Assembly (NCBI RefSeq): GCF_000018785.1
Contig: NC_010163.1
Location: 1,110,001 to 1,142,000, forward strand
DNA: 32,000 nucleotides
Direction: 5' to 3'
Origin: Acholeplasma laidlawii PG-8A
Lineage (GTDB): Bacteria > Bacillota_I > Bacilli_A > Acholeplasmatales > Acholeplasmataceae
Positions within the stretch are counted from its first letter, which is position 1. Each line of letters starts with the position of its first letter. Shown here one piece after another: positions 2,969 to 26,041 of this stretch. A model generated the notes under the pieces. The model ran no database searches, had not been told where the DNA came from, and saw only the letters and a list, made by a program, of their open reading frames with translations. A program made the position numbers and the translations under genes.

Positions 2969-4963
2969 TTAGTCGATAACTACTTTTGTTCCAATGTATG
3001 CACTAATTTGTTCATAGTTCATCTCATCTTTTTGAATATCAAAAATCGGTATTAGACTTGCATAATCACTTTCTATACGTGATTTTAATGCTGTTGTAAT
3101 ATTTAGTGTGAAGTTAGAAATATTACTATTTTGACTTGTAATGTCTACTGATAATTCATCATACTTTTCTACTTGAATAAATAACATAGGAACTACTTTA
3201 GAAACCTTTGTTAATACATCATTTTCCATGACATAAAAGTATTGAATTCTAAATTCTATATCATATCTTCTGGATGCAGTTTTCAGTGTAAATCCACCAA
3301 ATGATTTTGTCTTAAACGGAGTTGTACCATTGTTGACATAAACTTCTTTAATTTGAGTTTCGGTATCTGTTTCATACTTAATGTTTGTAATACCAGTTTG
3401 GCTATCTAAATTAAACCATAGTGTATTATATTGAATTGAAGATAAAGTCTCCTTGACTTCGTATCCTAAAAGTTTACCAGTAGATTTTTGGTATAACTCT
3501 ACAATCGTTCCACTAAAGCCTAAAATAGCCCCCGCTTTATTTCCTACAACGGATACATATGTATCATCCACTTTAAATTGAGCAGCACTCGATAATGATT
3601 TTCCAGCTACTGTCATGTGTTCATATATTGAACCTTCAATATGTCCATTTTCATCTTCTAAAACTTCAATATAAGAAGTTCTAAATCCTAAATATTTTGA
3701 TGCGATCGTAAAACCATCTTCAAAAACTTCATATTTTACACTATTAGCATCACCAATTTGGATACGGCCATCTTTATCAGAAGTAACCACATTATAGTTT
3801 AATGCTATTTGAACAGTTTGTTCACCAAATACAGGTATATTTGCTGTGTAGTCTACAACGTAACTCAGTACTTCACCTTCTAATGAAATATACACATTAT
3901 ATATGCCTAGTTTAAATTCATAGTTAGAAGTATCATCAGGGTTACTATCTAAATAGTTGTTAAATGCTACAACACTTGCTGAACTTATAGTGTCAATTAC
4001 TGACAATACAGTAAATAAGGTTTCTGCTTGTTCTAGGTTATCTAGTACCATTTGCCATTGTTCACCATATCCACCAAAAGTAATTTGATTAGTATTTACA
4101 AATGTAGCATAATTTGAATTTAATTGTGCTTGTGTCTTTAATACACCACCTGCTTGCATATGTGTAGGTAATATGTCTTGTGGCTTAAATTTATATGTAT
4201 TTAGGAGACTAGATAAGTATTGTCCGATTGCAACTTGTTCATTCCAAATAGCGTAAATTTTCAAATTCGAAGTCATTGTAATAGGCCACTGAACTTCTAC
4301 CTTAGTAGATAAATTCGTGGTCCAACCAGCAAATTTAAATCCTTCTTTTGTAGGATCTTGTGGTTTATTAATTGACATATCTTCATCTACTGTAATTGCA
4401 TTCACAGCTGAGCCGCCATCTACATCAAAAGTTAATGTATAAGTAGGTGTTATATATTGCCAATTTGCATAGAGTGTTAGATCAGATGTAACTTCAATGC
4501 TATTTACTGAATTTCCAGTAAATTCATCTTCTAAATACCATCCCTTGAATTCGTGATTTGCTTTGTTAGGTGTTGGAAAATCACTAAATAACGTACCTTC
4601 ATTAACTTTTCTAGTAACTGTACCTTCTGGGCTATTTGTTACAAATGTTATTGTGTATATATTAACCTTATTAGTCCATTTTGCGTAAATAGTCATATTT
4701 GAGTTCACTACAGTACTTGATGTAGCTTCTTCAGTCTTAGCATTATTTGTATACCATCCAGCAAAATCAAAATTCTCTTTAGTTGTAGTAGGTAGTGTAC
4801 CTAAAGTAGATCCCTCATTGACTGTTTTATTAGATACACTTGTTCCACCGTCAACATCAAATGTAACCGTATAAGTCTTTAATTCAGGAGCCGGTTCATC
4901 TCCACAGGCAACCAGCACAAAGGCAGCCATTAAAAATCCTAATATGATGAAAATTTTCTTCAT
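2969..4963 (-). CDS. Surface lipoprotein with three Listeria-Bacteroides (Flg_new/InlB-B-like) repeats and a large uncharacterised C-terminal domain
   Basis: Signal peptide with lipobox VLVAC|G. Three ~70-aa repeats of the pattern YT(V/I/L)TF..(DGG)...F.GW......(I/L)YA.W. About 420 further aa have no motif I recognise. Confidence 0.85.
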   Translation of the reverse strand: MKKIFIILGFLMAAFVLVACGDEPAPELKTYTVTFDVDGGTSVSNKTVNEGSTLGTLPTTTKENFDFAGWYTNNAKTEEATSSTVVNSNMTIYAKWTNKVNIYTITFVTNSPEGTVTRKVNEGTLFSDFPTPNKANHEFKGWYLEDEFTGNSVNSIEVTSDLTLYANWQYITPTYTLTFDVDGGSAVNAITVDEDMSINKPQDPTKEGFKFAGWTTNLSTKVEVQWPITMTSNLKIYAIWNEQVAIGQYLSSLLNTYKFKPQDILPTHMQAGGVLKTQAQLNSNYATFVNTNQITFGGYGEQWQMVLDNLEQAETLFTVLSVIDTISSASVVAFNNYLDSNPDDTSNYEFKLGIYNVYISLEGEVLSYVVDYTANIPVFGEQTVQIALNYNVVTSDKDGRIQIGDANSVKYEVFEDGFTIASKYLGFRTSYIEVLEDENGHIEGSIYEHMTVAGKSLSSAAQFKVDDTYVSVVGNKAGAILGFSGTIVELYQKSTGKLLGYEVKETLSSIQYNTLWFNLDSQTGITNIKYETDTETQIKEVYVNNGTTPFKTKSFGGFTLKTASRRYDIEFRIQYFYVMENDVLTKVSKVVPMLFIQVEKYDELSVDITSQNSNISNFTLNITTALKSRIESDYASLIPIFDIQKDEMNYEQISAYIGTKVVID
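4244..4873 (-). repeat. Three tandem ~210-nt coding repeats (aa 31-96, 97-168, 169-240 of the lipoprotein)
   Basis: The repeated protein pattern YTxTF...GW...IYAxW appears three times in direct succession. Confidence 0.8.
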
Positions 4964-5054
4964 TTTTTCCTTATCCTTCTTTCTTTTATTTGTTATTTGT
5001 AATAATAAACAATGACTATTAGGTTACTTTTTTAACTTGCCAAACTGAATATAA

Positions 5055-5082
5055 CAAAAAAAGATTCAACAGTGCGTTGAAT
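5055..5082 (-). terminator. Intrinsic terminator/attenuator in the spacer upstream of the lipoprotein gene
   Basis: Minus strand reads attcaac-gcact-gttgaat followed by c+TTTTTTT. The stem is only 7 bp but the U-tract is strong. Confidence 0.5.
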
Positions 5083-5277
5083 AACTATATTATTAGTTGA
5101 TTCTATTTTTCTAAGTATATCCATAATTATCCCCGTTATTAAGCATTTACTTTATTTAATTGTTTATCTTGATTTAATTATAACATGATAATATCATTTT
5201 TTAGTTGACCAAAAGTATAATCTTTAAATCTATATTTAGTTTTCATTTGCTTATTCCCCTAAACAGTTGTTATTACT

Positions 5278-5306
5278 ATTAGATCATTTATATCAAATTG
5301 TGTCAA
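5278..5306 (-). promoter_or_regulatory. Sigma-70-type promoter TTGACA-N17-TCTAAT with TG extension; GATC overlaps the -10
   Basis: The minus strand reads TTGACA (5306-5301), a 17-nt spacer ending in aTGa, then TCTAAT (5283-5278). GATC lies at 5282-5285. Downstream come an AGGGGA SD and a 22-codon mini-ORF. Confidence 0.5.
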
Positions 5307-5322
5307 CAAAGTGATCTGATAT

Positions 5323-5346
5323 AAAAAAAGACCTTAATAAAAGATC
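5323..5346 (-). terminator. Weak intrinsic terminator after the wH-T5orf172 gene
   Basis: Minus strand reads gatctt-ttatt-aaggtc (6 bp including one G-U pair) followed by TTTTTTT. Confidence 0.4.
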
Positions 5347-5360
5347 ATTTATTAATTAAA

Positions 5361-5954
5361 TTAGGAATGTAGATTATAACTTAACATGTCCTCAATTATG
5401 TTAAATATTTCGATACCTTTTTCAACCGGTAGTTTGAAAAACTCTCTTTTTTTGGCTTCAGTTTCTTTTCTTAAACTTGGATTCACTGTATCTATAAATG
5501 AATGAATACCTTTTTCAATTACAAGAGATTCTTTCATTGATTTGGTCTCTATAATCTTTTCCACTTTAAAAGGAAAAGGTACAGATGAATTATATAAAGA
5601 TTTCATTCTATTTTTAATTGAGTTTGTTCTACCTATCTTTACCCAACCAGGAATTGATTCATTTGAAACTAAATACACATAATCTTTTTTGCCTTTTTCC
5701 AATTCAGAGAAGTAAACTGCATCAAGTTTCATTTGATAAACCCCTGGTTCAATTCTATGAATAATTTCAAAGCGATTTAGATTTTGTAACGTTTGTCTGA
5801 TCTTTGCCTCTATATGAAAATTATTTGGATATACAGATTTAAACTCATCAAAAAAAGCATTTATATCCTTTAGTGAGAATATATTATGTTTAAACTTACT
5901 TTTTATGACCGTATAAACAAGATAGTTCCAACCATTTAATCTTTCAACTTCCAT
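5361..5954 (-). CDS. Fusion protein: N-terminal DpnI-C-terminal-like winged helix plus C-terminal T5orf172 (MUG113, GIY-YIG-superfamily) domain
   Basis: The N-terminus (GWNYLVYTVI...FSLKDINAFFDEFKSVYPNNFHIEAKIRQTLQNLNRFEIIHRIEPGVYQM) aligns with my memory of the DpnI wH domain (GW..., F.L.D., NNHIKEKIRQQLQILRD...G.Y). The C-terminus (YVYLVSN...WVKIGRTNSIKNRMKSL...EKGIH...REFFKL) matches the T5orf172 pattern. It has its own promoter, an AAGGGGAG SD and a terminator. Confidence 0.75.
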   Translation of the reverse strand: MEVERLNGWNYLVYTVIKSKFKHNIFSLKDINAFFDEFKSVYPNNFHIEAKIRQTLQNLNRFEIIHRIEPGVYQMKLDAVYFSELEKGKKDYVYLVSNESIPGWVKIGRTNSIKNRMKSLYNSSVPFPFKVEKIIETKSMKESLVIEKGIHSFIDTVNPSLRKETEAKKREFFKLPVEKGIEIFNIIEDMLSYNLHS

Positions 5955-5986
5955 ATAATCTCCCCTTAAAACTATACTTTAATATA

Positions 5987-6015
5987 ATTAGATCATGTTT
6001 TTACTTTTATGTCAA
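5987..6015 (-). promoter_or_regulatory. Promoter of the wH-T5orf172 gene: TTGACA-N17-TCTAAT, TG-extended, with GATC overlapping the -10
   Basis: The minus strand reads TTGACA (6015-6010), a 17-nt spacer ending in aTGa, then TCTAAT (5992-5987). GATC lies at 5991-5994. The architecture is the same as at 5278-5306. Confidence 0.55.
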
Positions 6016-6034
6016 ATTAATTATGTTTTTATAG

Positions 6035-6062
6035 AAAAAACCAATACAAATCACTGTATTGG
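6035..6062 (-). terminator. Intrinsic terminator closing the DpnII operon after the 82-aa gene
   Basis: Stem ccaataca (6041-6048) / tgtattgg (6055-6062), followed on the minus strand by TTTTTT. Confidence 0.65.
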
Positions 6063-6077
6063 CTTATGTTAATCGTA

Positions 6078-6326
6078 TTATAGACTTTGAATTTTTTGAC
6101 TTACCAAACTATCTAATAGTTCAACATCATCATTTTGAGTATATATTTCATATATTTCTTGAATTATTTCTAATAAAGTAGGTTTTACTGCTTCAGTAAT
6201 TTGACCAATATTATTCTCATAATACATCATTACCTTATATGCAATAAATACATGTGTAACATATAAATCTTCATTTTCTAATTGAGATTCTAGTTTTTTT
6301 GTAAAATCTAATAAATCAAATGCCAT
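6078..6326 (-). CDS. Small strongly acidic hypothetical protein, fourth gene of the DpnII operon
   Basis: 82 aa with 15 Asp/Glu versus 5 Lys/Arg, predicted helical. GGAG SD. It starts 37 nt after the dpnB stop, and the terminator comes only after it. A TATAAT also lies in the 37-nt gap. Confidence 0.65.
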   Translation of the reverse strand: MAFDLLDFTKKLESQLENEDLYVTHVFIAYKVMMYYENNIGQITEAVKPTLLEIIQEIYEIYTQNDDVELLDSLVSQKIQSL

Positions 6327-6363
6327 ATCATCATCTCCAGTAAGATGATTATACTATAAATTA

Positions 6364-7215
6364 CTATGTATTAAATAGTTTATGGAGCACTTTATGTTCT
6401 AGATCATATAAGGTATATAAATGTTCTATATCGTTATAAGCTTCCTCTAAATTCTTTTTAGTGGATAACCAGCCTTTTCCATCAGTAATCCAAACAAACG
6501 ATACATTGTCTATCTCTTTGATATCTTTGGCTAGTTTAGCATAACTTCTTGAAGTCTCGTTTAATTTAGAACCACTTGTTCCATAGTAGTTAGTTTCTAT
6601 AAGATATATATGACCCATTTTATCTTTTATCACAAAATCAAAACGCTTGTTTGATTTTGTGTCTTTTAAAGTATTAGATATATCTACACCAAATTCCTTA
6701 TATATTTTACTTGTATTAGCTTCTTCAAGTATGTCTATGCTTGGAATATCTTTCAAGTTCTTTAAAACAATCTGCGACATCATTTTGCCACTTCTATTTT
6801 TTCTACTATTAGTATCTAGTCCAACTTCAACACCAGTGACATAATCTACTAGGTTTTTGATACGTTTATCGTAAAACAAGTCTATAAGTCCTGTTTTTCT
6901 AATAAACTCTATATAATTGACATTCGGATCATAATAGTTGAAATTATAGGATTTCATTACTTCATCTAACACTTGAATGTTGTTTTCCCTAACTGCGAGT
7001 AATACAGGTATAACAGTTATGATATTCGGGTGTTCTTCTAATAACACTTTAAAAGCCTCATCAAAATTATCTTTTCCGATAAGGTAGTTTAATGTATTAA
7101 GTTTTAATTCTATGTGCTCTACTATACTAAAGACTTTTTTAAAATCAACAAAATAATCATATGTTGATAAACCCTCTTTTATAGATTCTATAATGTCATC
7201 AAATGATCTTTTCAT
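6364..7215 (-). CDS. dpnB: Type II restriction endonuclease, DpnII/MboI family (GATC)
   Basis: Matches remembered S. pneumoniae DpnII motifs: LVDYVTGVEVGLDTNSRKNRSG, KRFDFVIK, YGTSGSKLNETSRSY, WITDGKGW and DLEH. The ATGA start/stop overlaps dpnA. Confidence 0.9.
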   Translation of the reverse strand: MKRSFDDIIESIKEGLSTYDYFVDFKKVFSIVEHIELKLNTLNYLIGKDNFDEAFKVLLEEHPNIITVIPVLLAVRENNIQVLDEVMKSYNFNYYDPNVNYIEFIRKTGLIDLFYDKRIKNLVDYVTGVEVGLDTNSRKNRSGKMMSQIVLKNLKDIPSIDILEEANTSKIYKEFGVDISNTLKDTKSNKRFDFVIKDKMGHIYLIETNYYGTSGSKLNETSRSYAKLAKDIKEIDNVSFVWITDGKGWLSTKKNLEEAYNDIEHLYTLYDLEHKVLHKLFNT

Positions 7216-9631: not shown

Positions 9632-10006
9632 TTTTTCAATAATAGGTAAATCAGCTGCTGCAAAATCATAGTCAGCCATTTCTTCCTTAGTTAAGAATTT
9701 TGTATCTAAGTGTTCATTGGGTTTAAATTCACCCGAAACATATTCAGCAAAATATGCATGTAATGTAATGATAAATGAGTTATACTCATGAACTACAGTA
9801 GTCAAAAAGTCAGTTACTTTAATTTCAACATTAAGTTCTTCTTTAATTTCTCTAGCTAATGCTTCTTGATGTGTTTCACCTGGTTCAACTTTACCACCAG
9901 GAAACTCCCATTTACGTGCAAGTTCGCCTTGGTCTTTTCTTTGTGCAGCAAAATACTTATTATCTTTTTTTATAACAGCTGCTACGACTTCAATTTGTTT
10001 TTTCAT
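9626..10006 (-). CDS. NUDIX hydrolase, MutT/NudG-like (deoxy)nucleoside-triphosphate pyrophosphohydrolase
   Basis: Nudix box GGKVEPGETHQEALAREIKEELNV, about 126 aa. The true start is ATG 10006, with an AAGGAG SD 7 nt upstream inside the REase 3' end. The track start at 10102 is an over-extension. Confidence 0.85.
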   Translation of the reverse strand: MKKQIEVVAAVIKKDNKYFAAQRKDQGELARKWEFPGGKVEPGETHQEALAREIKEELNVEIKVTDFLTTVVHEYNSFIITLHAYFAEYVSGEFKPNEHLDTKFLTKEEMADYDFAAADLPIIEKL

Positions 10007-12950
10007 TTTCTTTCTCCTTCGTGTAATCATATGTAAGTCTTTGATAAATATCATTTGGTACTCTATGTTCAAATTTAAGTTTAAACGAAATTGGTGCTTC
10101 ACCCACGTATTCTTCTACAAAAACTTTCCCTAAATAAGTAAAGTCTCTACTATAGCCTTTACCCTTAGTTGCTTCTGTTGCAGATTTTCTAACAAATAAG
10201 TGGAGGTTAAACCCTAATTCTTTATGGTTAACTAAATTCTTACCTGTTTCATTTGTGGTTCTTGTAGAACCAGGTGATTGCCAGTGGAATGTATTTTGAT
10301 CTATAAAATAGTCATCATAGTTAATACTATCATGTACATCGCCTTTTACCAAATTAACTGTTAAGTAATATTCTTTTTCAATTCTAATTAAGCCTGACAT
10401 TAATAGCCCTGACACATTTTTATCAAACAATGACAGTGTATAGATTTCAGTCTTAGAATACTCATGATAAAGATCTACAAATGGATAAGGTGCCACTTTT
10501 CTATCAAACTCATGATGATATCTAGCAAGACCATAACTAATTGTATTGTTGATAATATCTGTGTATCTAACGTTTTCAAAAATATTACTAAAATCATCGG
10601 ATACTCTGATTTGACTATTTGATTTTTCTATAACCTTTATATTATTCTTTTTATCCGTTACTGAACCAAATTCTAGGAGTAGGTTTTTTACCGAGTGATT
10701 AAAGCTATCCAGGTTAGGGTTATCAATGTATTTTTTCATTTTTGAAAATAATTCATTCATTTCTAGTGCTTTATAATGAGTTAGTTCCCTTAATATTGCA
10801 TATTCATAAGGGCGTTTAATTGGTAACATACTATCGAGATATCCAATTAATTTAATAAATGAATCGTGTAATGAGGAATCTTCTAAAATACCTTTTTCCT
10901 GTGATGCTACAAAACTAATATAGGATTTTTTCTTTTTTATGAACCTAATCGGATCAAACTCATCAAATGCAAAGTCTGTTAATCTAGGAACACGTCCTAG
11001 ATTTTTCTTTTTATCTAGATATGCTTCCTTTAGATAAGTGATCTCGTTAAAGTCAGTAGCCTCTAATTGTGCTAATATTCTTTCCTTTGATACTTTATTC
11101 AAACTAATAAAAGTATCTCCCGGTATATCAAAGAAATCATTTGCTGTAGATACAATCAAATCATCCTTATCATAGGCTTTATCACCAATAAGTGCAATCG
11201 GAAGTAAAAAGTTCTTGTTATGGTTTGCAATAAAGTCTAATACTGTTAAATATTCTTTATCTTTATATTTTCTTAAACCTCTACCAAGTTGTTGCGTGAA
11301 AATAATAGATGAATTCGTCGGTCTTAGCATTAGTATCAAATTCACTGATGGTATATCAATACCTTCATTAAATATCTCTACTGTAAATATATAGGATAAG
11401 GGATCATTTGGATCTTCTAATCTTCTAATAGTATCTTCTCTGTCAAGTTCAGCCGTTCCACCAGTTAAGGCAATAGATACTAATCCTCTTTCATTAAAAG
11501 CATTAGCCATATATTCAGCATGGGCAATATTCACACAATAACCAAGTGCTTTGGTCTTATCTCCAGAATGTTTGTACTTTTTAATATTCTCAATAATTAA
11601 CTCTACACGAGCCTTGATATTTAGTTTTTCAGCTAGTTTATCTATTTCAGTATTTAAATTAATATTTTGAATATCCGTTGTTGCATCTTCTATACCAAAA
11701 TAGTGAAATGGTACTACAAGTTCTTTTTCTAAAGCTTGTCTTAATCTAATTTCAACTGCAATCTGATTATCATATAATTCATAAATATTTCTAGAATCGG
11801 TTCTTTCGGGTGTCGCTGTCATACCTAATAAAAACTTAGGTGTAAAGTAACTTGTGATTCTCTGATAACTATCTGCAGCACTACGATGTGCCTCATCTAT
11901 AATAATATAGTCAAAATAGCTAGGATCAAATAGGTTTAAGTTATCAATTTTAGAAATAGTTTGAACAGATGCAAAAAGATAATCACTTTCTAAATCTTTT
12001 TTAGAACCTACAAATTCACCCATTGATACTTCAGGCATAATTGTTTTGAATGTTCTAAGTGCATCCCTTAATATTTTTCCTCTATGTACAACAAATAATA
12101 CCTTTTTAGGTCTTAACTGGAAAACATCAAATGCAGATAGGTATGTTTTACCAGTTCCAGTGGCAGCAATAATAAGTGCTTTATTACCCCCACTATTTCT
12201 AATGTTATTTAGGCCCTCTAAGGCCATTTCTTGCATTTCATTAGGTTTTATTTCATTAACATCTACTTGTTCAATAAAATCTTTAAGTTCGTTATTTTCA
12301 TCGATATTAAATCCTTGCATCGCATCCACAATCTCGTGATCAGGATTTCTCTTGATAAATTCAAAAAAGAAGTCAAGCATTGCCTTTTTGCCTTCATCAA
12401 CCATTCTTTTACTCTCATAGAGTGTTTTATATTCTTTTATGACTTTAGGTGTTAATTGTAGGGATTTAGGGTCATTAAATAATTCATCAAAGTTATCGAT
12501 GATATTTTCTTTAGTTTTGTCATCATTTTTGGCAACATACTTCAAATTCCACTCGTGGTTATTTTTAAGTGCATACTGAGTCATATTACTTGAACCAACT
12601 ACAATTTCAAAATGATTTCCCATATCGAATATATATGCTTTTGTATGAAACTTTCTAATACTTGTTAAAGCATCATATAGTTTTGCCTCTATATAGTTTT
12701 GGTCACCTATCATTTCAAGTGCTCTAGGTGTAGTACCAAACTCATAATTAGTTGTTATAAGTTTTCCTTTGACACCTCTTTTACCTGCATCTATAAGATC
12801 ATCTATGATGAGTTGCAAGCCAGAGTCACTAATAAAAGCCACGCTAAAAGAAAAACTTTGACATCTTTTCAAAGCATCTTTTAAATAATGATAAAAGCTT
12901 GATTTTAAATTGTTCGTAAGAAGTTCTACGGGTTGTTGATTTATTTTCAC
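9990..12950 (-). CDS. SauUSI-like Type IV modification-dependent restriction enzyme: N-terminal PLD nuclease, SF2/ResIII helicase, C-terminal DUF3427 (SRA-like) domain
   Basis: PLD HxK motif FHTKAYIFD...GSSNMT. Helicase motifs AATGTGKT (I), IIIDEAHR (II), GMTATPER (III) and QQLGRGLRK (VI). The C-terminal FHWQSPGSTRTT...HLFVRK...YLGKV is typical of DUF3427. GTG start with a GAGGT SD. Confidence 0.8.
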   Translation of the reverse strand: MKINQQPVELLTNNLKSSFYHYLKDALKRCQSFSFSVAFISDSGLQLIIDDLIDAGKRGVKGKLITTNYEFGTTPRALEMIGDQNYIEAKLYDALTSIRKFHTKAYIFDMGNHFEIVVGSSNMTQYALKNNHEWNLKYVAKNDDKTKENIIDNFDELFNDPKSLQLTPKVIKEYKTLYESKRMVDEGKKAMLDFFFEFIKRNPDHEIVDAMQGFNIDENNELKDFIEQVDVNEIKPNEMQEMALEGLNNIRNSGGNKALIIAATGTGKTYLSAFDVFQLRPKKVLFVVHRGKILRDALRTFKTIMPEVSMGEFVGSKKDLESDYLFASVQTISKIDNLNLFDPSYFDYIIIDEAHRSAADSYQRITSYFTPKFLLGMTATPERTDSRNIYELYDNQIAVEIRLRQALEKELVVPFHYFGIEDATTDIQNINLNTEIDKLAEKLNIKARVELIIENIKKYKHSGDKTKALGYCVNIAHAEYMANAFNERGLVSIALTGGTAELDREDTIRRLEDPNDPLSYIFTVEIFNEGIDIPSVNLILMLRPTNSSIIFTQQLGRGLRKYKDKEYLTVLDFIANHNKNFLLPIALIGDKAYDKDDLIVSTANDFFDIPGDTFISLNKVSKERILAQLEATDFNEITYLKEAYLDKKKNLGRVPRLTDFAFDEFDPIRFIKKKKSYISFVASQEKGILEDSSLHDSFIKLIGYLDSMLPIKRPYEYAILRELTHYKALEMNELFSKMKKYIDNPNLDSFNHSVKNLLLEFGSVTDKKNNIKVIEKSNSQIRVSDDFSNIFENVRYTDIINNTISYGLARYHHEFDRKVAPYPFVDLYHEYSKTEIYTLSLFDKNVSGLLMSGLIRIEKEYYLTVNLVKGDVHDSINYDDYFIDQNTFHWQSPGSTRTTNETGKNLVNHKELGFNLHLFVRKSATEATKGKGYSRDFTYLGKVFVEEYVGEAPISFKLKFEHRVPNDIYQRLTYDYTKEKENEKTN

Positions 12951-12985: not shown

Positions 12986-14128
12986 TTAAATACCTAAATA
13001 ATCATATACACCTTTAACACCATCTACTTCAGTGTCATTGGATATTGATTTTAATCGCTTTTTAGTATTCTTAACTTTAAAGACTTGTTTTAGTATTCTA
13101 ACAAACCACGCCCATGGTAAAAGCCATGGGTGTTTTTTTAAGTAAGTATAAGTTTCTTTGATTCTATCTCTACTCGGGAAAACTTCGCTAAAGAAGAACC
13201 CTAATTTAGATTTTTTAAGTCTTGTTTGTTCGTGCGTTCTTTTTGTTAGATACATATCATGTTTAGTACCAGATCCGTGAATACCACTATTCATGATGTA
13301 ATCTATGACGTGGTAGTCTTGTTCTTGTGGTTTTATTTGATTGGTAAATATTTGATTTAGTCTGATAACTTTATCATTAAAGTCTTTTAAGTTATAAGTT
13401 ATTAGGTATTCATTTAATTTATTCAAATCCATAATAGACTCATAATACTCAAAATACACCTTCATATCTAGTAAACTACGAATACCTACACCTGAGGTGC
13501 GTATATGTCTAATTAAATGTGTTAATAGATAAACATATTCGAAAGCTGGTTCTAACTTATAAGTATAACCATCTACTTGATATACGTGATCCCACACATT
13601 TTTAAGTAGTGCTTCATTTTCATATTCATTGCTAGAAGTGATACTTTGGTGTAGTTCTATAAAGTTACCATCAGCTGTTTCATAAACATGATGATGTGAG
13701 GTAGCACTTTTAAATTTGTAGTTATGCTTAATTAATACTTTTTTAGCCACATCAAACATATCAAGTGGTACAACAACATCAATATCACCCATACCACGCA
13801 TATAACTTTCAGGATACAACTCTTTTAAGTGACTACCCTTCAAGAATACATGTTTAATCTTATGAGTGTTAAAAAGGCTTTTTAAATCCTTAATGATAGC
13901 TTGTTGCTGGATATCTTTAGATACAAAAGCACCAAATGCTTGCAACAGCATTTGGTGATATTTTGGCGTCTTAAAACTGGACTTATCGATTGTCTCAAAT
14001 AAAAGTCCTACTAATCCGTTTTCGAATATAATTTTTGTAAGTTCTAACTCATCTTGACTATCAAACTTATAGGTTTCTTTCTTAAAACTTAAATCAAGTA
14101 AGTGATATATGAGTTCATTTTGCATCAA
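12986..14128 (-). CDS. Pol-beta-superfamily nucleotidyltransferase (NTP_transf_5 / 'uncharacterised nucleotidyltransferase' type)
   Basis: Motifs FLKGSHL...RGMGDIDVVVP and IELHQS, plus a Trp-rich C-terminal helix (HPWLLPWAWFVRIL). It starts 14 nt after capD and ends 35 nt before the REase gene. Confidence 0.65.
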   Translation of the reverse strand: MMQNELIYHLLDLSFKKETYKFDSQDELELTKIIFENGLVGLLFETIDKSSFKTPKYHQMLLQAFGAFVSKDIQQQAIIKDLKSLFNTHKIKHVFLKGSHLKELYPESYMRGMGDIDVVVPLDMFDVAKKVLIKHNYKFKSATSHHHVYETADGNFIELHQSITSSNEYENEALLKNVWDHVYQVDGYTYKLEPAFEYVYLLTHLIRHIRTSGVGIRSLLDMKVYFEYYESIMDLNKLNEYLITYNLKDFNDKVIRLNQIFTNQIKPQEQDYHVIDYIMNSGIHGSGTKHDMYLTKRTHEQTRLKKSKLGFFFSEVFPSRDRIKETYTYLKKHPWLLPWAWFVRILKQVFKVKNTKKRLKSISNDTEVDGVKGVYDYLGI

Positions 14129-16357: not shown

Positions 16358-17710
16358 TTATTTGATTTCTAATAATTTAGTTGAACTATTAGTTACTTCT
16401 AATACGAAGTCACCTTCAACCAAACCTAATTTATCTAAGAACTTAGACGCTTCATCTTTACTTAATACTGGGTATACACCAAAGTGAAGTGCTAACGCTC
16501 TAGCTTCTTTAGCATTTTTTACAACAGCAATGTTAATTGCTTGTGTATGGTATGCTGCAAATGATTTAGCTACATCAACGCCTGTTGTAATTACAACATC
16601 TACTTCATACTCTAATACTAATTTAGCTGCTGATTGAGCGATTGCATCAATATTAGAATCTCCCATGAAGTAACCATCTAAGAACACTTCATAGTCTAAT
16701 GTTGATTCAGCTTTTGCATCAATACTTGCCATTTTTTTAACTGATTCAATTGGGTAATCACCAGCTGCTGATTCACCACTTAACATTGTTGCAGAAGTTC
16801 CTTCTCTAACTGCGTTAAATACGTCAGATACTTCAGCTCTTGTTGGGCGTGGGTTTTTTTGCATAGATTCAAGCATTTGAGTAGCAACGATTACTACTTT
16901 ACCTAATTCTAAACATTTGTCGATCATTTCTGATTGGTACATTGGTACTAATTCACCTTCAACTTCGATACCTAAGTCTCCACGTGCAACCATGATACCA
17001 TCAACAACATCTAAAATGTCATCTAGGTTATCCATACCTTCTTGGTTTTCAATTTTAGCAATAATTTGAACGTCTTTACCACCGTTGTTATCCAAGATAT
17101 CACGAACAGCTTGAGCATCTTCGCCACGTCTTACAAAACTTGCAGCAACAAAGTCATAACCCATAGTTGCAGCAAATTTAATATCACTTGCATCTTTTTC
17201 GGAAATGAAAGGCATATTTAGAACAACACCTGGAATGTTTACACCACGTCTTGATTTTACTGTATGTGTGTTTAAAGCTTTAGTTACTAATTCATTATTT
17301 TTAGTATCTTTTTCAATCACTTCTAATGTTAGGTAACCATCATCAACAGAAACGAATTCTCCTACTTTCATATCGTCAAATAAACCTGGGTATGAAACAG
17401 AGAATCTTTCTTTGTTTCCTAATACTGGTGTAAATCCGATTCTAACGATTGAATTTTTTTGGATTTCTACTTTACCATCAAATTCGTGTGTACGAATTTC
17501 TGGTCCTTTAGTATCAAGTAAGTAAGCAACGTGTGTGCCTAACTCCTCGTTAATTGATTGAATCGTTTTTAAACGGTTCCCGTGTTCTTCATAGTCTCCG
17601 TGTGAAAAGTTAAAGCGTGCTACGTTCATACCAGCTTTAACAAGTTGTGTCATGACTGCTTTATCTTCTGATGCAGGTCCTAATGTACAAACAATTTTTG
17701 TTTTTCTCAT
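16358..17710 (-). CDS. pyk: Pyruvate kinase
   Basis: Motifs MRKTKIVCTLGPAS, NFSHG, MVARGDLGVE-type (MVARGDLGIEV) and GESAAG. I prefer the start at ATG 17710 over the track start at 17728. Confidence 0.95.
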   Translation of the reverse strand: MRKTKIVCTLGPASEDKAVMTQLVKAGMNVARFNFSHGDYEEHGNRLKTIQSINEELGTHVAYLLDTKGPEIRTHEFDGKVEIQKNSIVRIGFTPVLGNKERFSVSYPGLFDDMKVGEFVSVDDGYLTLEVIEKDTKNNELVTKALNTHTVKSRRGVNIPGVVLNMPFISEKDASDIKFAATMGYDFVAASFVRRGEDAQAVRDILDNNGGKDVQIIAKIENQEGMDNLDDILDVVDGIMVARGDLGIEVEGELVPMYQSEMIDKCLELGKVVIVATQMLESMQKNPRPTRAEVSDVFNAVREGTSATMLSGESAAGDYPIESVKKMASIDAKAESTLDYEVFLDGYFMGDSNIDAIAQSAAKLVLEYEVDVVITTGVDVAKSFAAYHTQAINIAVVKNAKEARALALHFGVYPVLSKDEASKFLDKLGLVEGDFVLEVTNSSTKLLEIK

Positions 17711-17745
17711 ATTTTTTTTACCTTTCATTTTTTCTTTTTTTGTAA

Positions 17746-18696
17746 TTATCTTAATTTCTTAATGAGATCATATAGCTCAACGCGTTCTTTTGGATGGTTG
17801 ATGATATCAGATAATGGTGATGTTACTAGTTTATCATCTTTTATACCAACACATTGTCCACTCACACCTTTGGCAAGCATTTCGACTGCAAATGCACCCA
17901 TACGTGATGCTAAGATACGGTCTTCAGCAATTGGTGTTCCACCTCTTTGGATATAACCAAGTACTGTTGCTCGTGAACTAAATCCAGATTTGATTGAGAT
18001 TTCAGCAGCAAGTTTATGCACATCAAATTGTTGTTCAGTGACAACAATGATGGCATGGCGTCTGCCTTCTTCATTATGTTTTTTTAATGTTGAAATTAAC
18101 TTATCTTTATTAATTGGGTTTTCTGGTGTAATAATGAACTCAGCACCACCACAGATACCTGCATATAATGCTAAATCACCTGATGTTCTACCCATAACTT
18201 CAATAATACTACAACGTCTATGTGACGATGATGTATCTCTTAGTTTATCTATTGCTTCTACAATTGTATTTAATGCAGTATGGAATCCGATTGTATAATC
18301 TGTTCCATAAACGTCATTATCAATTGTTCCAGGAATAGCTATGGTTTGGAATTCTAGTTCATGGAGTGCTTGAGCACCTCTGTAACTACCATCACCACCA
18401 ATAACGATTAAAGCATCAATACCACGATTACGTAGATTATCGATTGCTACCATTTGAACTGGTACTTCTTTAAACTCAGATACTCTTGCAGTACCCAGTT
18501 TTGTACCACCAATGCTTAACATACCTGAAACATCTTTGGCAGCTAGCGGTATAAAACGATCTTCTAAAAGACCTCTATAACCATCCATAATACCAAACAT
18601 CTCATGACCTTCTGCAATACCTGTACGCACAATTGCACGAATTGCTGCGTTCATTCCAGGTGCATCGCCGCCAGAAGTTAAAACTGCTATTTTCAT
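17746..18696 (-). CDS. pfkA: ATP-dependent 6-phosphofructokinase
   Basis: Motifs MKIAVLTSGGDAPGMNAAIR, IGGDGSY (Gly at the E. coli 104 position), PGTIDND (Gly at 124) and MGR. Classic pfkA-pyk operon arrangement. Confidence 0.95.
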   Translation of the reverse strand: MKIAVLTSGGDAPGMNAAIRAIVRTGIAEGHEMFGIMDGYRGLLEDRFIPLAAKDVSGMLSIGGTKLGTARVSEFKEVPVQMVAIDNLRNRGIDALIVIGGDGSYRGAQALHELEFQTIAIPGTIDNDVYGTDYTIGFHTALNTIVEAIDKLRDTSSSHRRCSIIEVMGRTSGDLALYAGICGGAEFIITPENPINKDKLISTLKKHNEEGRRHAIIVVTEQQFDVHKLAAEISIKSGFSSRATVLGYIQRGGTPIAEDRILASRMGAFAVEMLAKGVSGQCVGIKDDKLVTSPLSDIINHPKERVELYDLIKKLR

Positions 18697-18969: not shown

Positions 18970-20214
18970 ATGAAAAAATTAGTTGGTGCTGCACTCTTAG
19001 GACAATCTGGAGGTCCAACCTCAGTGATTAACGCCTCAGCAGCAGGTGTATTTTTAGAGAGTTTAAAGCATGATGAGATTACAGAAATCTATGGTGCTCA
19101 ACACGGTATCAAAGGTATCTTAGATGAAAACTTCTATGATATTAGAAAAGAAGATGTTGAAGAATTAGAAAGATTAAAGTATACTCCATCATCTGCAATT
19201 GGTTCAGTAAGATACAAATTAAAAGATTACAAAAAAGATCCAACAGACTATAATAAATTATTAGAAATCTTTAAAAAATATAACATTCGTTATTTCTTCT
19301 ACAATGGTGGAAATGACTCAATGGATACATGTTTAAAAATTTCTAAATTTATGAAAACAGCTGGTTGGGAAATGCGCGTTGTTGGGGTACCTAAAACAAT
19401 CGATAACGACTTAGCAGGTATCGACCATTCACCTGGATATGGTTCAGCAGCTAAATACGTTGCAACTTCTATCATGGAATTATACTTAGATGCTACAGTT
19501 TATAACACACAACAATTCATTATTGTTGAAGTAATGGGTAGAAATGCTGGTTGGTTAACTGCTGCTGCTGCACTTGCTTCAGTTGGTGGTGTTAAACCAG
19601 ACTTAATGTATTTACCAGAAACTCCATTTGATATGGACAAATTCTACAACCAAGTAGGTGAATTACTAAAAACTGGTAAATCAGTATTTGTAGTTGTATC
19701 AGAAGGTATTAAAACTGCTGAAGGTAAATACATCCCTGAATATGAAACAGAAATCGCTCGTGATGCATTCGGACATGCGAACTTAGGTGGTACTGCAAGT
19801 GTACTTGCAAACCACGTAGGTGAAAAATTCGGTGTTAAGACTCGTGCTATCGAATTCTCATTATTACAAAGATCAGCTGCTCACATTGCATCTCAAACAG
19901 ATATCAATGAAGCATTCAAAGTTGGACAAATTGCTGTTAAAAAAGCAATCAATGGTACAACAAACAAATTTGTAGGTATCCAAAGAGTTCCTGGGGATAA
20001 ATACAAAGTGAAGTATCCTCTACTTCCATTAAAGATTGTTGCTAACGCAGAACGTAAAGTACCATTAGAGTGGATCTTACCTGATGGACAAGGTTTAACT
20101 CAAGACTTTATTGATTATGCATTACCATTAATCCAAGGTGAAACTAAATTAGAAAAAGTAAACGGGTTACCTCGTTTTGCTAAATTAAATAAAGTTTTAG
20201 CACCTAAAAAATAA
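18970..20214 (+). CDS. pfp: Pyrophosphate-dependent phosphofructokinase (PPi-PFK)
   Basis: PFK fold (GGPTSVINA, MGR). It has GGNDS (Asp at the position equivalent to E. coli Gly104) and VPKTIDND (Lys at Gly124), the residue pair associated with PPi rather than ATP use. Confidence 0.8.
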   Translation: MKKLVGAALLGQSGGPTSVINASAAGVFLESLKHDEITEIYGAQHGIKGILDENFYDIRKEDVEELERLKYTPSSAIGSVRYKLKDYKKDPTDYNKLLEIFKKYNIRYFFYNGGNDSMDTCLKISKFMKTAGWEMRVVGVPKTIDNDLAGIDHSPGYGSAAKYVATSIMELYLDATVYNTQQFIIVEVMGRNAGWLTAAAALASVGGVKPDLMYLPETPFDMDKFYNQVGELLKTGKSVFVVVSEGIKTAEGKYIPEYETEIARDAFGHANLGGTASVLANHVGEKFGVKTRAIEFSLLQRSAAHIASQTDINEAFKVGQIAVKKAINGTTNKFVGIQRVPGDKYKVKYPLLPLKIVANAERKVPLEWILPDGQGLTQDFIDYALPLIQGETKLEKVNGLPRFAKLNKVLAPKK

Positions 20215-23241: not shown

Positions 23242-24348
23242 TTATCTTAAGGATTCAAATGTTATAAATTCTTTATGAAAACTTTCTGCTACATCTTTTT
23301 GAGTGATGTATCCTTTATAGGTATTGAGTCCTTCATTGATCGAAGGATTTTCTTCTACTGATTTTTCTAAACCCTTATTTGCAATCTCTAGTCCAAACTT
23401 TAAAGTTGCATCATTAAGTGCAATCGTTGCTGTTCTAGGTACAATACCTGGCATGTTAGCTACACAATAATGTGTAATACCAGAAACTTTAAAGACTGGT
23501 TCTGAGTGTGTAGTTGGTCTACTTACTTCAGTTGATCCACCTTGATCGATTGCGATATCGACAATCACAGTACCTTTTTTCATATCTTTATAATATGCTT
23601 TTTTAATGAGTTTTGGTGCCTTCTTACCAGGTAATAGGACACTTGAAATCACTAAATCTGCATCTTTTAATGAAGCAATAATATTTGCTTCATTAGATAT
23701 GAGTGTTGTTAATTTAGGATAGATTTGTTTTAAATCGTCTAATCTTTTCTCATTAATATCTAGAATCGTGACATCACTGCCTAATCCGTAAGCATTTTGA
23801 AGTGCTGCACTACCTGCAACACCGGCACCAATAATAGTAACTTTTGCAGGGTTGACACCTGTTACACCAGAAATTAATAACCCATTTCCACCATTGTTTT
23901 TATATAAGAATCTAGCGCCTTCTAAAACAGATAGTCTACCTGCAACCTCACTCATAGGTTTTAATAAAGGTAGCCCTGTTTCATCACGTACAGTTTCATA
24001 AGCGATGGATGATACGCGTTTCTTTAACAATGTTTTTAATAAGGGTTCATCTGCCGCTAAGTGCAGATATGTAAATAGAATTTGACCGGTTCTAATGAGT
24101 GGATACTCACTACGAACTGGCTCTTTAACTTTAATAATCATTTTTGACTTATGCCAAACTTCTTTTGCACTGTCTATAATGACAGCGCCTCTTTTTTTAT
24201 ATGCTGCATCGCTAAACCCTGAGGTTTTGCCTGCACCACTTTCTACCAAGACTGTGTGTCCTGCTTTTACATAAGCTCTAACAGCATCCGGTGTTAACCC
24301 AACTCTATCTTCACTCTCTTTTACTTCTCTAACTAATCCAATAATCAT
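23242..24348 (-). CDS. ald: Alanine dehydrogenase
   Basis: MIIGLVREVKESEDRVGLTP, a Rossmann motif IIGAGVAG, and 368 aa length match the AlaDH/PNT family. Confidence 0.85.
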   Translation of the reverse strand: MIIGLVREVKESEDRVGLTPDAVRAYVKAGHTVLVESGAGKTSGFSDAAYKKRGAVIIDSAKEVWHKSKMIIKVKEPVRSEYPLIRTGQILFTYLHLAADEPLLKTLLKKRVSSIAYETVRDETGLPLLKPMSEVAGRLSVLEGARFLYKNNGGNGLLISGVTGVNPAKVTIIGAGVAGSAALQNAYGLGSDVTILDINEKRLDDLKQIYPKLTTLISNEANIIASLKDADLVISSVLLPGKKAPKLIKKAYYKDMKKGTVIVDIAIDQGGSTEVSRPTTHSEPVFKVSGITHYCVANMPGIVPRTATIALNDATLKFGLEIANKGLEKSVEENPSINEGLNTYKGYITQKDVAESFHKEFITFESLR

Positions 24349-24368: not shown

Positions 24369-25367
24369 TTATTTGGAAATAAGACCCCTGGCTCTTGTAT
24401 ATTGTTTCGGTAATAATTGATCGTCTAATTGAAATATAAAATATGGTTCTTTTAATAATTTACGGCCAAAATACGCCATATCCATTGTGCCATCTAAAAT
24501 AGCGGCTTCTGCCAGTAGCGGATCATCAATTTGTCCACCGCCTATCGTTACTAGGCCAGTTTCCTCTTTAATAATCTTTGCATAAGGCAGTTGGTATCCC
24601 GGATAATCTTTTACAGGTGTAGGTAGAATACCTCCACTTGATACGTTTACGATATCAATTTTATCTTTAAATGTATTTAAAATACTTGCCCAATCATAAG
24701 GTGTCATCCCTAGATCGTGATACTCGTATCCTGATACTCTAATTTGAAGAATTTTTTCTTTTGGAAAATAAAGTAATACTTCATCAATAATTTCTTTTAA
24801 GAATAAAGTACCATCTTTATATTTATCTGTTCTTTGATTTGTAACATCAGATATAAATTGTGCAATTAAATACCCATGTGCACCGTGAAGCTCAATACTA
24901 TCAAAACCTGCCTCATTGGCACGACGTGCTGCTTGGCCAAATGCTTTAACAATTTCTTTAATACCCTCTTCATCCAACATCTTAGGGGTCAAATTCTTAT
25001 CTGAAAAAGGTACATCTGTACTAGATACAATATTGTCGGTGCGAGATTTTCTACCTGCATGAGAGATTTGAACACCAATTTTTGCACCATACTTGTGTAC
25101 TGCATCTACGATTTTCTTTAGTGGTGCTACATGTTTATCATCCCATAAACCTAAATCTTCATAACTAATACGTCCATTTGGTAATACTGCAGTAGATTCA
25201 AGCATAATATAACCTACACCACCGATTGCTCTTGTGACATAATGTACATAGTGAAAATCAGTTGCTACTCCATCTTGTTTTTCTACAGAATACATACACA
25301 TAGGGCTCATCATCACACGGTTTTTAAACTCTGTATCTTTAACCTTAATTGGTTCTAATAGTTTCAT
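24369..25367 (-). CDS. namA: NADPH dehydrogenase, YqjM/NamA-type old yellow enzyme
   Basis: Motifs KNRVMMSPMCMYS, HAGRK and ELHGAHGYL are collinear with B. subtilis YqjM as I remember it. GGAGGT SD. Confidence 0.85.
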   Translation of the reverse strand: MKLLEPIKVKDTEFKNRVMMSPMCMYSVEKQDGVATDFHYVHYVTRAIGGVGYIMLESTAVLPNGRISYEDLGLWDDKHVAPLKKIVDAVHKYGAKIGVQISHAGRKSRTDNIVSSTDVPFSDKNLTPKMLDEEGIKEIVKAFGQAARRANEAGFDSIELHGAHGYLIAQFISDVTNQRTDKYKDGTLFLKEIIDEVLLYFPKEKILQIRVSGYEYHDLGMTPYDWASILNTFKDKIDIVNVSSGGILPTPVKDYPGYQLPYAKIIKEETGLVTIGGGQIDDPLLAEAAILDGTMDMAYFGRKLLKEPYFIFQLDDQLLPKQYTRARGLISK

Positions 25368-25454
25368 ATGTAACCTCCACTTACTTCTATTTTAACATGC
25401 GCTATATCATTAGATTACCCAAATCACTTAAAAATCAATCCCGTAGTAATTGAA

Positions 25455-25477
25455 ATCCACCGTCATTAACGGTGGAT
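25455..25477 (-). terminator. Terminator-like hairpin; putative expression platform of the purine riboswitch
   Basis: 9-bp stem atccaccgt / acggtggat with a 5-nt loop, followed on the minus strand by tttcaatt. It lies 35 nt downstream of the aptamer and 88 nt upstream of the namA ATG. Confidence 0.55.
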
Positions 25478-25511
25478 GGATTGTTTATTTTAATTCATTT
25501 TAAGAAGGAGT

Positions 25512-25585
25512 ATGTACGTAGTCTTAGTTTATCGGAACTAAGGTAGAAACTTAACTACCGAATATTAGTTAATTATACGGTACAT
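25512..25585 (-). promoter_or_regulatory. Purine riboswitch aptamer, guanine-type (RF00167-like)
   Basis: The minus-strand RNA is AUGUACCGUAUAAUUAACUAAUAUUCGGUAGUUAAGUUUCUACCUUAGUUCCGAUAAACUAAGACUACGUACAU. It folds as:
- P1 of 9 bp with one bulged C.
- J1/2 UAA.
- P2 UUAACUA/UAGUUAA.
- J2/3 GUUUCUAC, identical to B. subtilis xpt.
- P3 CUUAGUU/AACUAAG.
- L2 ending in GG opposite L3 starting with CC.
- J3/1 A-C-U, with C at the specificity position. Confidence 0.8.
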
Positions 25586-25600
25586 AAGATACATGTTGAA

Positions 25601-25629
25601 ATTATAACCTATTCACATAAAATTGTAAA
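25601..25629 (-). promoter_or_regulatory. Promoter TTTACA-N17-TATAAT driving the riboswitch leader
   Basis: The minus strand reads TTTACA (25629-25624), a 17-nt spacer, then TATAAT (25606-25601). The aptamer P1 begins 16 nt downstream. Confidence 0.6.
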
Positions 25630-25645
25630 GCCTAATGTTTTACAA
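25622..25645 (-). terminator. AT-rich terminator hairpin after zur
   Basis: 8-bp stem attgtaaa (25622-25629) / tttacaat (25638-25645), followed on the minus strand by tttta. The stem is weak (1 GC pair). Confidence 0.4.
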
Positions 25646-25675
25646 TAATTTAGATTATCAAAACTTCACATAATC

Positions 25676-26041
25676 TTATTCTTGACAGTTTTTACATATA
25701 CCGTAAAGATTTAAATCATGATGTTGAACTTCAAATCCGTAAGTAATTTTAATTTCTTCTATCAAACTATCGATATGACAATCAAACTCATATTTCTTAT
25801 GACAATTCTCACACACCATGAAATGGTGGTGTTCAGCTTCATTTAAATAGTAATACGCTGTATTGTCTAAGTAATTTCTAGAAACCAGTGCATCTTGATG
25901 AAATATTTCTAAGGTTCTATAAATGGTAGACAAATTAAGTTTTTCTCCACCGAGTGCGTTATATATGTCATCAGCACTTTGAGGCTTTTTAGCTCTTTTT
26001 AAAGTATCATAGACCATTTGCCTTTTAGTTGTTAGCTTCAT
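25676..26041 (-). CDS. zur: Fur-family zinc uptake regulator
   Basis: Winged-helix N-terminus, CENCHKKYEFDCH plus a C-terminal CKNC Zn site. It is the last gene of the Zn ABC operon and abuts the permease stop. Confidence 0.8.
   Translation of the reverse strand: MKLTTKRQMVYDTLKRAKKPQSADDIYNALGGEKLNLSTIYRTLEIFHQDALVSRNYLDNTAYYYLNEAEHHHFMVCENCHKKYEFDCHIDSLIEEIKITYGFEVQHHDLNLYGICKNCQE

Follow-up and report, generated by a model that had tools for sequence, protein, structure and literature searches.

Guanine riboswitches of the Bacillus subtilis xpt-pbuX type (guanine-I) provide the nearest point of comparison for an element found in Acholeplasma laidlawii PG-8A, in a 32,000-nt stretch of contig NC_010163.1 (positions 1,110,001 to 1,142,000; hereafter the window, in whose coordinates its features are given). 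The element lies on the minus strand, between a zur-like gene and an operon for a namA-like old yellow enzyme (OYE) and an alanine dehydrogenase (ald). It shares with the xpt-pbuX type the three-way junction, the UAUAAU motif, the joining segment GUUUCUAC, the A-C-U core with its specificity C, the GG in loop L2 and CC in loop L3 that are available for a loop-loop contact, a sigma-70-type promoter of its own, and a hairpin downstream. Orthologues in A. equirhinis and on the contigs L094 and L099 are also predicted to have the classical antiterminator/terminator OFF platform. In contrast to the xpt-pbuX type, no antiterminator is predicted in the window and the hairpin is uncoupled from P1; the genes that follow encode a flavin oxidoreductase and an alanine dehydrogenase and have their own promoter, and the ancestral target is a PhnDCE-family ATP-binding cassette (ABC) importer rather than a known purine gene.

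Variants of the guanine class (2'-deoxyguanosine-I, -II and -III, xanthine-II, guanine-II and 8-oxoguanine) are defined by substitutions within the binding pocket's joining regions (PMC9295807, PMC10556655). They resemble the A. laidlawii RNA in their scaffold and in an atypical gene association, and some of them occur in Mollicutes or other Firmicutes; the window RNA, unlike them, has no pocket substitutions, and its core is identical to the guanine-I consensus. The S-adenosylmethionine (SAM) riboswitches SreA and SreB of Listeria still regulate downstream genes in cis, and a trans target is known (reviewed in PMC8079631). As in these, the A. laidlawii leader has its own promoter; it would end at a terminator-like hairpin and might then remain in the cell as a small RNA, and it shares with this trans-acting type a single-stranded pyrimidine-rich stretch 3' of the aptamer. 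In contrast to SreA and SreB, its cis target is gone from the window and its short RNA is a prediction.

The element was first recognised in an earlier note, made from the letters of the window, which left four explanations side by side: a new member of the purine regulon, a variant with another ligand, a riboswitch orphaned by a rearrangement, and a terminated riboswitch-derived small RNA. On balance, we lean towards a guanine aptamer that has been orphaned, is kept by selection and no longer serves as an attenuator of namA-ald. Since the downstream hairpin is predicted to form independently of the aptamer and namA-ald has a promoter of its own, the riboswitch is probably not a classical attenuator of this operon. 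The aptamer as such is an ordinary member of a known family, which any Rfam-based annotation would flag. What is new is an evolutionary explanation of its odd neighbours, the loss of coupling together with continued selection, and a PhnDCE-type transporter as the ancestral target.

The sole Rfam match across the window is a full-length match to the Purine model RF00167 at 25601-25499 on the minus strand. Its score is 47.7 bits, where the gathering score is 37, so that the cmsearch check proposed in the earlier note ended above the threshold, and the Purine family wins the Rfam clan competition. The aptamer itself occupies 25511-25586 (minus strand, like the features below unless stated), as defined by RF00167, the helix table and covariation. 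It consists of P1 (25586-25576 with 25520-25511), J1/2 (25575-25573, UAA), P2 (25572-25566 with 25557-25551), L2 (25565-25558, AUAUUCGG), J2/3 (25550-25543), P3 (25542-25536 with 25529-25523), L3 (25535-25530, CCGAUA) and J3/1 (25522-25521, AC), in which the C at 25521 is the specificity nucleotide C74. The canonical guanine-type core with its selective C, as originally read, is thus borne out, and so are the unusual loops: with 8 nt in L2 and 6 nt in L3, the first is 1 nt longer and the second 1 nt shorter than the classic loops of the xpt-pbuX type, from which the window also differs in a one-nucleotide bulge, a C, in P1.

Across 13 relatives, the pocket positions of J1/2, J2/3 (GUnUCUAC) and J3/1 are invariant with two exceptions, the flipped-out position 3 of J2/3 and, in L085 and L093, position 3 of J1/2. 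The GG of L2 and the CC of L3 are kept in all sequences, and loop lengths are non-canonical (6-10 nt in L2, 5-7 nt in L3). Over eight distinct relatives, 7 of the 17 helix pairs have changed on both sides; the covariation score reaches 0.372, compared with 0.129 in shuffles (none of 500 as high) and at most 0.12 in slid controls, and 94.1% of the helix cells are paired against 82.2% in shuffles. Scores against RF00167 range in the relatives from 41.4 bits (L092, scored with permissive filters) to 73.1 bits. By its sequence, the element is a genuine canonical guanine-I aptamer, which would be expected to bind guanine or hypoxanthine.

Comparison with related genomes, another check that had been proposed, showed that in outgroups the same zur-adjacent riboswitch precedes a phnDCEE-type transporter which is missing from the window, and this supports the explanation by rearrangement. 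Orthologous loci were gathered by exact-protein look-ups of contigs and by a DNA-pattern scan of metagenomes, in which 56 of 67 matches were due to chance and lay inside unrelated sequence. An OYE-alignment search of genome contigs gave, among the matches listed, mostly distant Bacillales OYEs, with A. granularum as the sole member of the clade. At every orthologous locus, zur forms the left-hand anchor and OYE-ald the right-hand one. In layout A, the riboswitch and the hairpin stand directly between these anchors (the window, A. granularum or L005, L118, L100, L152, L092, L108, L147, L085 and L093). In layout B, zur and the riboswitch are followed by phnD-phnC-phnE-phnE, and hairpins and then -10 boxes lie between phnE and OYE-ald (L094; L155, whose contig covers just the OYE start; A. 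equirhinis, L087; L130; and L090 joined with L099 and L148). Layout C, found in L095, has a terminator and a promoter between zur and OYE-ald, with neither riboswitch nor transporter. OYE identity is 78% for L100 and L152, 84-85% for L092, L108 and L147, and 74-75% for L085 and L093.

The PhnC and PhnE proteins of layout B score above their NCBIfam cutoffs, and the binding protein scores above the cutoff of the phosphate/phosphite/phosphonate binding-protein subfamily. The closest solved relatives of the PhnD-like protein are phosphite/phosphonate binders, at only 58 bits or less. Riboswitch and transporter are located at 269-371 and 462-3919 in L087, and at 1852-1955 and 2048-5510 in L094. 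On a more distant contig, L161, a 73-bit purine riboswitch stands ahead of PhnD-PhnC (together at about 4940-6805 of the reverse complement). A universal link between the riboswitch and PhnD was rejected, given that the PhnD homologues of L164 and L165 have no riboswitch whereas that of L161 has one; in L164, the transporter and a 5'-nucleotidase gene are divergently oriented. The 120 best homologues of PhnD include no protein labelled as A. laidlawii.

In neighbour-joining trees of the OYE, and of the OYE together with the alanine dehydrogenase, layout A is monophyletic, and its successive outgroups are L094, L087 and the pair of L090 and L095. Since the loci without a transporter fall into one clade, their layout is explained by a single deletion. 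The simplest history suggested by these sequences would start from an ancestral unit of riboswitch and transporter, with the transporter lost once, at the base of the A. laidlawii clade. The idea that purine riboswitches are generally linked to OYE genes was tried and rejected: at 79 other OYE loci, a purine aptamer upstream of the gene was found in none. In A. hippikon-type genomes (L088, L096), an OYE homologue follows RNase J and lacks ald; a thiamine pyrophosphate (TPP) riboswitch (70 bits; 757-864 in L088, 2754-2860 in L096) stands ahead of the nearby YuaJ thiamine transporter, which is an ordinary association. In the literature searched, nothing relevant was found that links guanine or purine riboswitches with a flavin oxidoreductase, Acholeplasma or phosphonate.

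Folding clearly predicts an antiterminator in the transporter-bearing leaders, where the 5' arm of the layout B terminator (e.g., GACUUUUAACCAC) pairs with the P2-3'/J2-3 strand (GUGGUUAAGUC). When truncated transcripts were folded up to the terminator loop, the stability lost by holding the terminator 5' arm unpaired (ddG) came to 5.4 and 8.9 kcal/mol for L094 and L087, against 0.0 in the window and 1.0 kcal/mol in L092, where the competitor is absent. L085 and L093 have a different, strong terminator, whose 5' arm pairs with the P1 5' strand in truncated transcripts (ddG 6.3 and 4.3 kcal/mol). The terminator pair probability was computed on leaders up to the U-tract, in the free ensemble and with the P1 core enforced. 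On enforcing P1, it rises from 0.05 to 0.76 in L094, from 0.14 to 0.99 in L087 and from 0.12 to 0.90 in L099, all of layout B. In layout A, it is the same in both states: 0.98 (0.982) in the window, 1.00 in L100, L152, L092 and L085, and 0.72 in L093. Thus, none of the six transporter-less leaders folded shows coupling between aptamer and terminator. Two features expected of a cis-acting switch are lacking from the window: as folded, its aptamer does not exclude an expression platform, as those of L094, L087 and L099 do, and the genes that follow, for OYE and alanine dehydrogenase, are unrelated to the ligand.

The hairpin of the window (25455-25477) is GC-rich and comprises 9-10 bp, with a predicted stability of -14.5 kcal/mol (z = -4.2). 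The first description of it as terminator-like stands for this stem, which is predicted to be ligand-independent; it does not stand for the tail, since the eight bases past the stem, UUCAAUUA, contain four U and fail the T-run criterion of the terminator scan on the minus strand. Counted from the closing stem U at 25455, the interrupted U-tract reads UUUCAAUU. The orthologous hairpins of L087 and L094 pass the same scan, that of L152 would too, by eye, and compensatory changes keep the hairpin in L100, L092 and L152 (CCACCG/CGGUGG, CCACUG/CAGUGG and CCACC/GGUGG variants). On the plus strand, the hairpin at 25455-25477 passes the terminator criteria (tail GGATTGTTTA), and no plus-strand gene converges there. 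An antiterminator had been proposed between UACCGU of the P1 5' strand and ACGGUG of the terminator 3' arm. When enforced, this pairing reaches -20.1 kcal/mol against -30.3 kcal/mol for aptamer plus hairpin, and it is absent from L100, L152 and L092, which speaks against it. Another pairing, of AAUUACUACGG (25441-25451) just past the hairpin with CCGUAUAAUU (P1 5' strand and J1/2), is present in the minimum-free-energy structure of the 155-nt leader; it was rejected as lying beyond the termination point and not being conserved in the same three relatives.

Transcription from this leader is documented in vivo. Fisunov et al. (2016) mapped primary 5' ends of PG-8A in rich medium by 5'-ERS, and their supplementary table gives two minus-strand transcription start sites (TSSs) for ACL_1096, at 1135595 and 1135383 (PMC5138195). 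Coverage in two replicates was 283/147 in the control and 86/81 after heat shock for the former, and 21/16 and 10/12 for the latter (PMC5138195). With a window-to-genome offset of +1,110,001, which was checked on six other TSSs that each lie 20-80 nt upstream of an open reading frame (ORF) of the window, the former corresponds to 25594 and the latter to 25382. The riboswitch promoter (25601-25629) combines a -35 box TTTACA (25629-25624), a 17-nt spacer and a -10 box TATAAT (25606-25601). It matches 11 of 12 consensus positions and, with the mapped start 7 nt past the -10 box, deserves the rating of a good promoter that it had received at first sight. The second start lies 7 nt past the TAAAAT of an extended -10 box, TGTTAAAAT, in a namA-proximal promoter at 25382-25397 (TG at 25397-25396, -10 at 25394-25389). 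Because each mapped start falls 7 nt past a -10 box, both promoters are real, and namA has an independent start downstream of the hairpin. The earlier note had suspected such a promoter; it exists, at TGTTAAAAT (25397-25389) and not at TGATATAGC (25409-25401), where it had been placed. A distance of 212 nt separates the two starts, and the riboswitch promoter gives a roughly 10-fold stronger 5' signal. The namA-proximal -10 box is found at the equivalent position in all OYE-ald relatives, 20-35 nt before the OYE start, in every layout.

The loss of coupling has not been accompanied by decay of the aptamer. The 93-nt block from the TSS to the CU-rich tail CUCCUUCUU is identical at 92 of 93 positions (99%) between the window and L100, and its identity to the window is 96% in L152, 89-90% in L092 and L108, and 81% in L085 and L093. 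For comparison, the fourfold-degenerate sites of the OYE gene are 42-46% identical (against L100, L152 and L092/L108 only, with L085 and L093 excluded), and outside the block the leader has 42-62% identity to the six relatives. Because the block remains 81-99% identical where the fourfold sites have fallen to 42-46%, the aptamer is still under selection. Compensatory changes occur within layout A itself: position 6 of P2 is U-A, A-U or C-G, and several P3 pairs have changed on both sides. The hexamers of the riboswitch promoter are conserved in the relatives. The aptamer block, the promoter and the hairpin are thus under purifying selection, and it would follow that the short RNA must retain an aptamer-dependent role.

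The tail CUCCUUCUU (25502-25510) lies directly 3' of P1, resembles the anti-Shine-Dalgarno sequence at the 3' end of 16S rRNA, and is identical in nine lineages (the window, L100, L152, L092, L108, L085, L093, L094 and L155). Its pairing with the Shine-Dalgarno (SD) region of namA amounts to -9.1 kcal/mol in the window, rank 7 of 23 window SD regions, and tail-SD pairing is ordinary in the window, L100, L152, L085 and L093 (-6.5 to -9.1 kcal/mol). The P1-3' strand and tail of L092 and L108 (ACAUACUCCUU) are jointly complementary to the OYE SD region over 10-11 nt, with -15.6 and -14.5 kcal/mol; in L092, ACAUACUCCUU is the exact 11-nt complement of AAGGAGUAUGU (about 693-703 and 842-852), which is not so in the window. 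A general anti-SD mechanism through CUCCUUCUU was rejected on the rank of the namA SD region and the restriction of strong pairing to L092 and L108. Within the 32-kb window, no specific trans target of the riboswitch RNA was found; the stretch that may serve for pairing in trans is GUACAUACUCCUUCUU.

Taken together, the following course of events may be proposed. In the ancestor, zur would have been followed by a promoter, the aptamer, an antiterminator/terminator and the phnD-phnC-phnE-phnE importer, and then by a hairpin and OYE-ald with its own promoter. Guanine would have closed P1 and freed the terminator 5' arm from the P2-3'/J2-3 strand, so that transcription stopped before the transporter. 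On the branch towards A. laidlawii, a deletion would have removed both the transporter genes and the antiterminator. At present, the polymerase starts from the strong promoter at 25594, and the transcribed aptamer presumably still binds guanine; the hairpin at 25477-25455 would form regardless of the aptamer, and most transcripts would end there as an RNA of approximately 140 nt. Because the U-tract is poor, some leak-through past the hairpin would be expected, and this could, from a promoter ten times stronger, add to the expression of namA-ald, which would be expressed mainly from its own promoter at 25382. As to a remaining role, the most likely route is that closure of P1 would gate the availability of the P1-3' strand and the CU-rich tail. 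In its modelled anatomy, the locus agrees better with a small RNA that is terminated separately than with attenuation of namA-ald: a strong promoter is followed by the aptamer, then by a stretch that is single-stranded and rich in CU and A/U, by a constitutive hairpin and by an independently promoted operon.

Among the other explanations, the most serious, if still doubtful, is that the riboswitch was co-opted after the deletion for cis control of namA-ald by a kinetic or non-canonical mechanism; a guanine response would then alter the continuation into, the stabilisation or the translation of namA-ald by the abundant transcripts from 25594. The element does lie on the strand of namA-ald and in the position of a leader, there is nothing else downstream in cis, and the conservation of aptamer, promoter and hairpin, the weak U-tract and the strength of the upstream promoter would all suit such control. 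In truncated transcripts of L085 and L093, moreover, the P1 5' strand can be captured by the terminator 5' arm, which is a mimic of the P1 3' strand, and the complementarity of ACAUACUCCUU to the OYE SD region in L092 and L108 resembles a translational switch of the add type. However, the leaders of the laidlawii sub-clade have no structure that competes with the hairpin (ddG of 0-1 kcal/mol, with unchanged probabilities), complementarity to the SD region is unremarkable in the window, L100, L152, L085 and L093, namA retains its own conserved and experimentally active promoter, and the insulating hairpin is itself maintained. Together with the failure of the proposed antiterminator and the absence of purine aptamers from the 79 other OYE loci, this weakens the idea of a new regulon member. 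A bolder and rather unlikely extension of the orphan explanation is that the RNA of about 140 nt from 25594 has become a free-standing guanine-sensing regulatory RNA that outlived its operon, with P1 closure gating the pairing of P1-3'/CUCCUUCUU with SD regions, which may belong to namA on leak-through transcripts or, in trans, to other mRNAs. The small-RNA explanation of the earlier note fits the anatomy, with a mapped promoter and start and a predicted 3' end.

That the element is a decaying, neutral remnant of the deletion with no present function is strongly disfavoured. The cognate genes have gone, the antiterminator has been lost, and aptamers of the L092 type have a U-C mismatch in P1 and the low score of 41.4 bits. 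Against these stand the identity of the aptamer block, far above that of the fourfold sites and the flanking leader, the compensatory pair changes inside the transporter-less clade, and a promoter that is strong and active in vivo. It is harder still to credit that the aptamer senses a guanine derivative, for instance 8-oxoguanine, 2'-deoxyguanosine or xanthine, that would suit an oxidative-stress enzyme. YqjM-type enzymes are linked to stress in Bacillus, the gene association is atypical, and the loops depart by a nucleotide each from the classic lengths. Known variants, on the other hand, change the joining regions of the pocket (PMC9295807), and J1/2, J2/3 and J3/1 are canonical here; sister species have this aptamer in control of a transporter, and its best-fitting family in Rfam is Purine. 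The orphaned, maintained aptamer thus remains the preferred reading, and several points weigh against it. The upstream promoter is so much the stronger that read-through of as little as 10% would count for namA-ald. That transcripts end at the hairpin, and do so independently of the ligand, is predicted from folding; real switches can be kinetic, and in the sub-clade of L085 and L093, cis control may operate. The direction of transporter gain or loss is read from a neighbour-joining tree of one or two proteins. Finally, this reading does not by itself account for the strong conservation of the aptamer.

The genes around the leader are as first described. The spacer between zur and namA (25368-25675) measures 308 bp and, on its minus strand, contains no ORF of at least 20 aa; a search for a small ORF in the leader likewise found none there. 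Upstream lie genes for a znuA-like protein, an ATPase, a permease and a Fur-family regulator, the last of which (zur-like, 25676-26041, minus strand) closes the znuACB-zur unit and forms the left anchor in all relatives. In three other A. laidlawii assemblies (L002, L003 and L004), a G-to-T change at position 2528 turns zur codon 68 from GAA into a stop, so that the product measures 67 rather than 121 aa. An identical riboswitch leader is shared by four A. laidlawii assemblies, these three included. Downstream, the non-purine genes expected from the first reading are confirmed. The namA-like, YqjM-type OYE (24369-25367, minus strand; ABX81706.1, presumably locus tag ACL_1096) has the SD sequence GGAGG at 25378-25374, matches PF00724 with 225 bits, and has 3krz, 3gr7 and 1z41 (YqjM, 274 bits) as its closest solved structures. 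Its PMCMY motif (P22-M23-C24-M25-Y26) is invariant; the NamA equivalog NF010047 scores 360, under its cutoff of 431. The alanine dehydrogenase gene (23242-24348, minus strand; ABX81705.1) starts 20 nt past the OYE gene and its product matches TIGR00518 with 451 bits against a cutoff of 392.

Elsewhere in the window, a pfkA-pyk pair (17746-18696 and 16358-17728, minus strand) is divergent from a gene for a longer phosphofructokinase homologue of 414 aa (18970-20214, plus strand), and TSSs have been mapped in PG-8A for both phosphofructokinase units, at 1128719 (minus) and 1128933 (plus). A possible defence or mobile cluster on the minus strand (5361-5954, 9990-12950 and 12986-14128) encodes a protein with T5orf172 and DpnI_C, a 986-aa PLD-nuclease/ResIII-helicase/DUF3427 protein and an NTP_transf_5 nucleotidyltransferase.

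Riboswitches are usually taken as labels for the next gene, and the A. laidlawii case shows that this can mislead. The association of the aptamer with OYE and alanine dehydrogenase is a deletion scar, and position alone gives no ground for adding namA-ald to the purine regulon. A PhnDCE-family importer under guanine control is a member of that regulon that was not found described in the literature searched; it gives a hint that a substrate has gone unrecognised or that purine and phosphorus scavenging are linked in Acholeplasma, and the PhnD-family ABC importer of the sister species may carry a purine-related substrate. The locus is a natural and tractable system for asking what selection acts on in an orphan riboswitch. 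With A. laidlawii and A. equirhinis, orthologous leaders predicted to lack and to have a working switch form a matched experimental pair. If the RNA proves to be free-standing, it would represent a natural riboswitch that has turned, or is in transition, into a ligand-gated small RNA.

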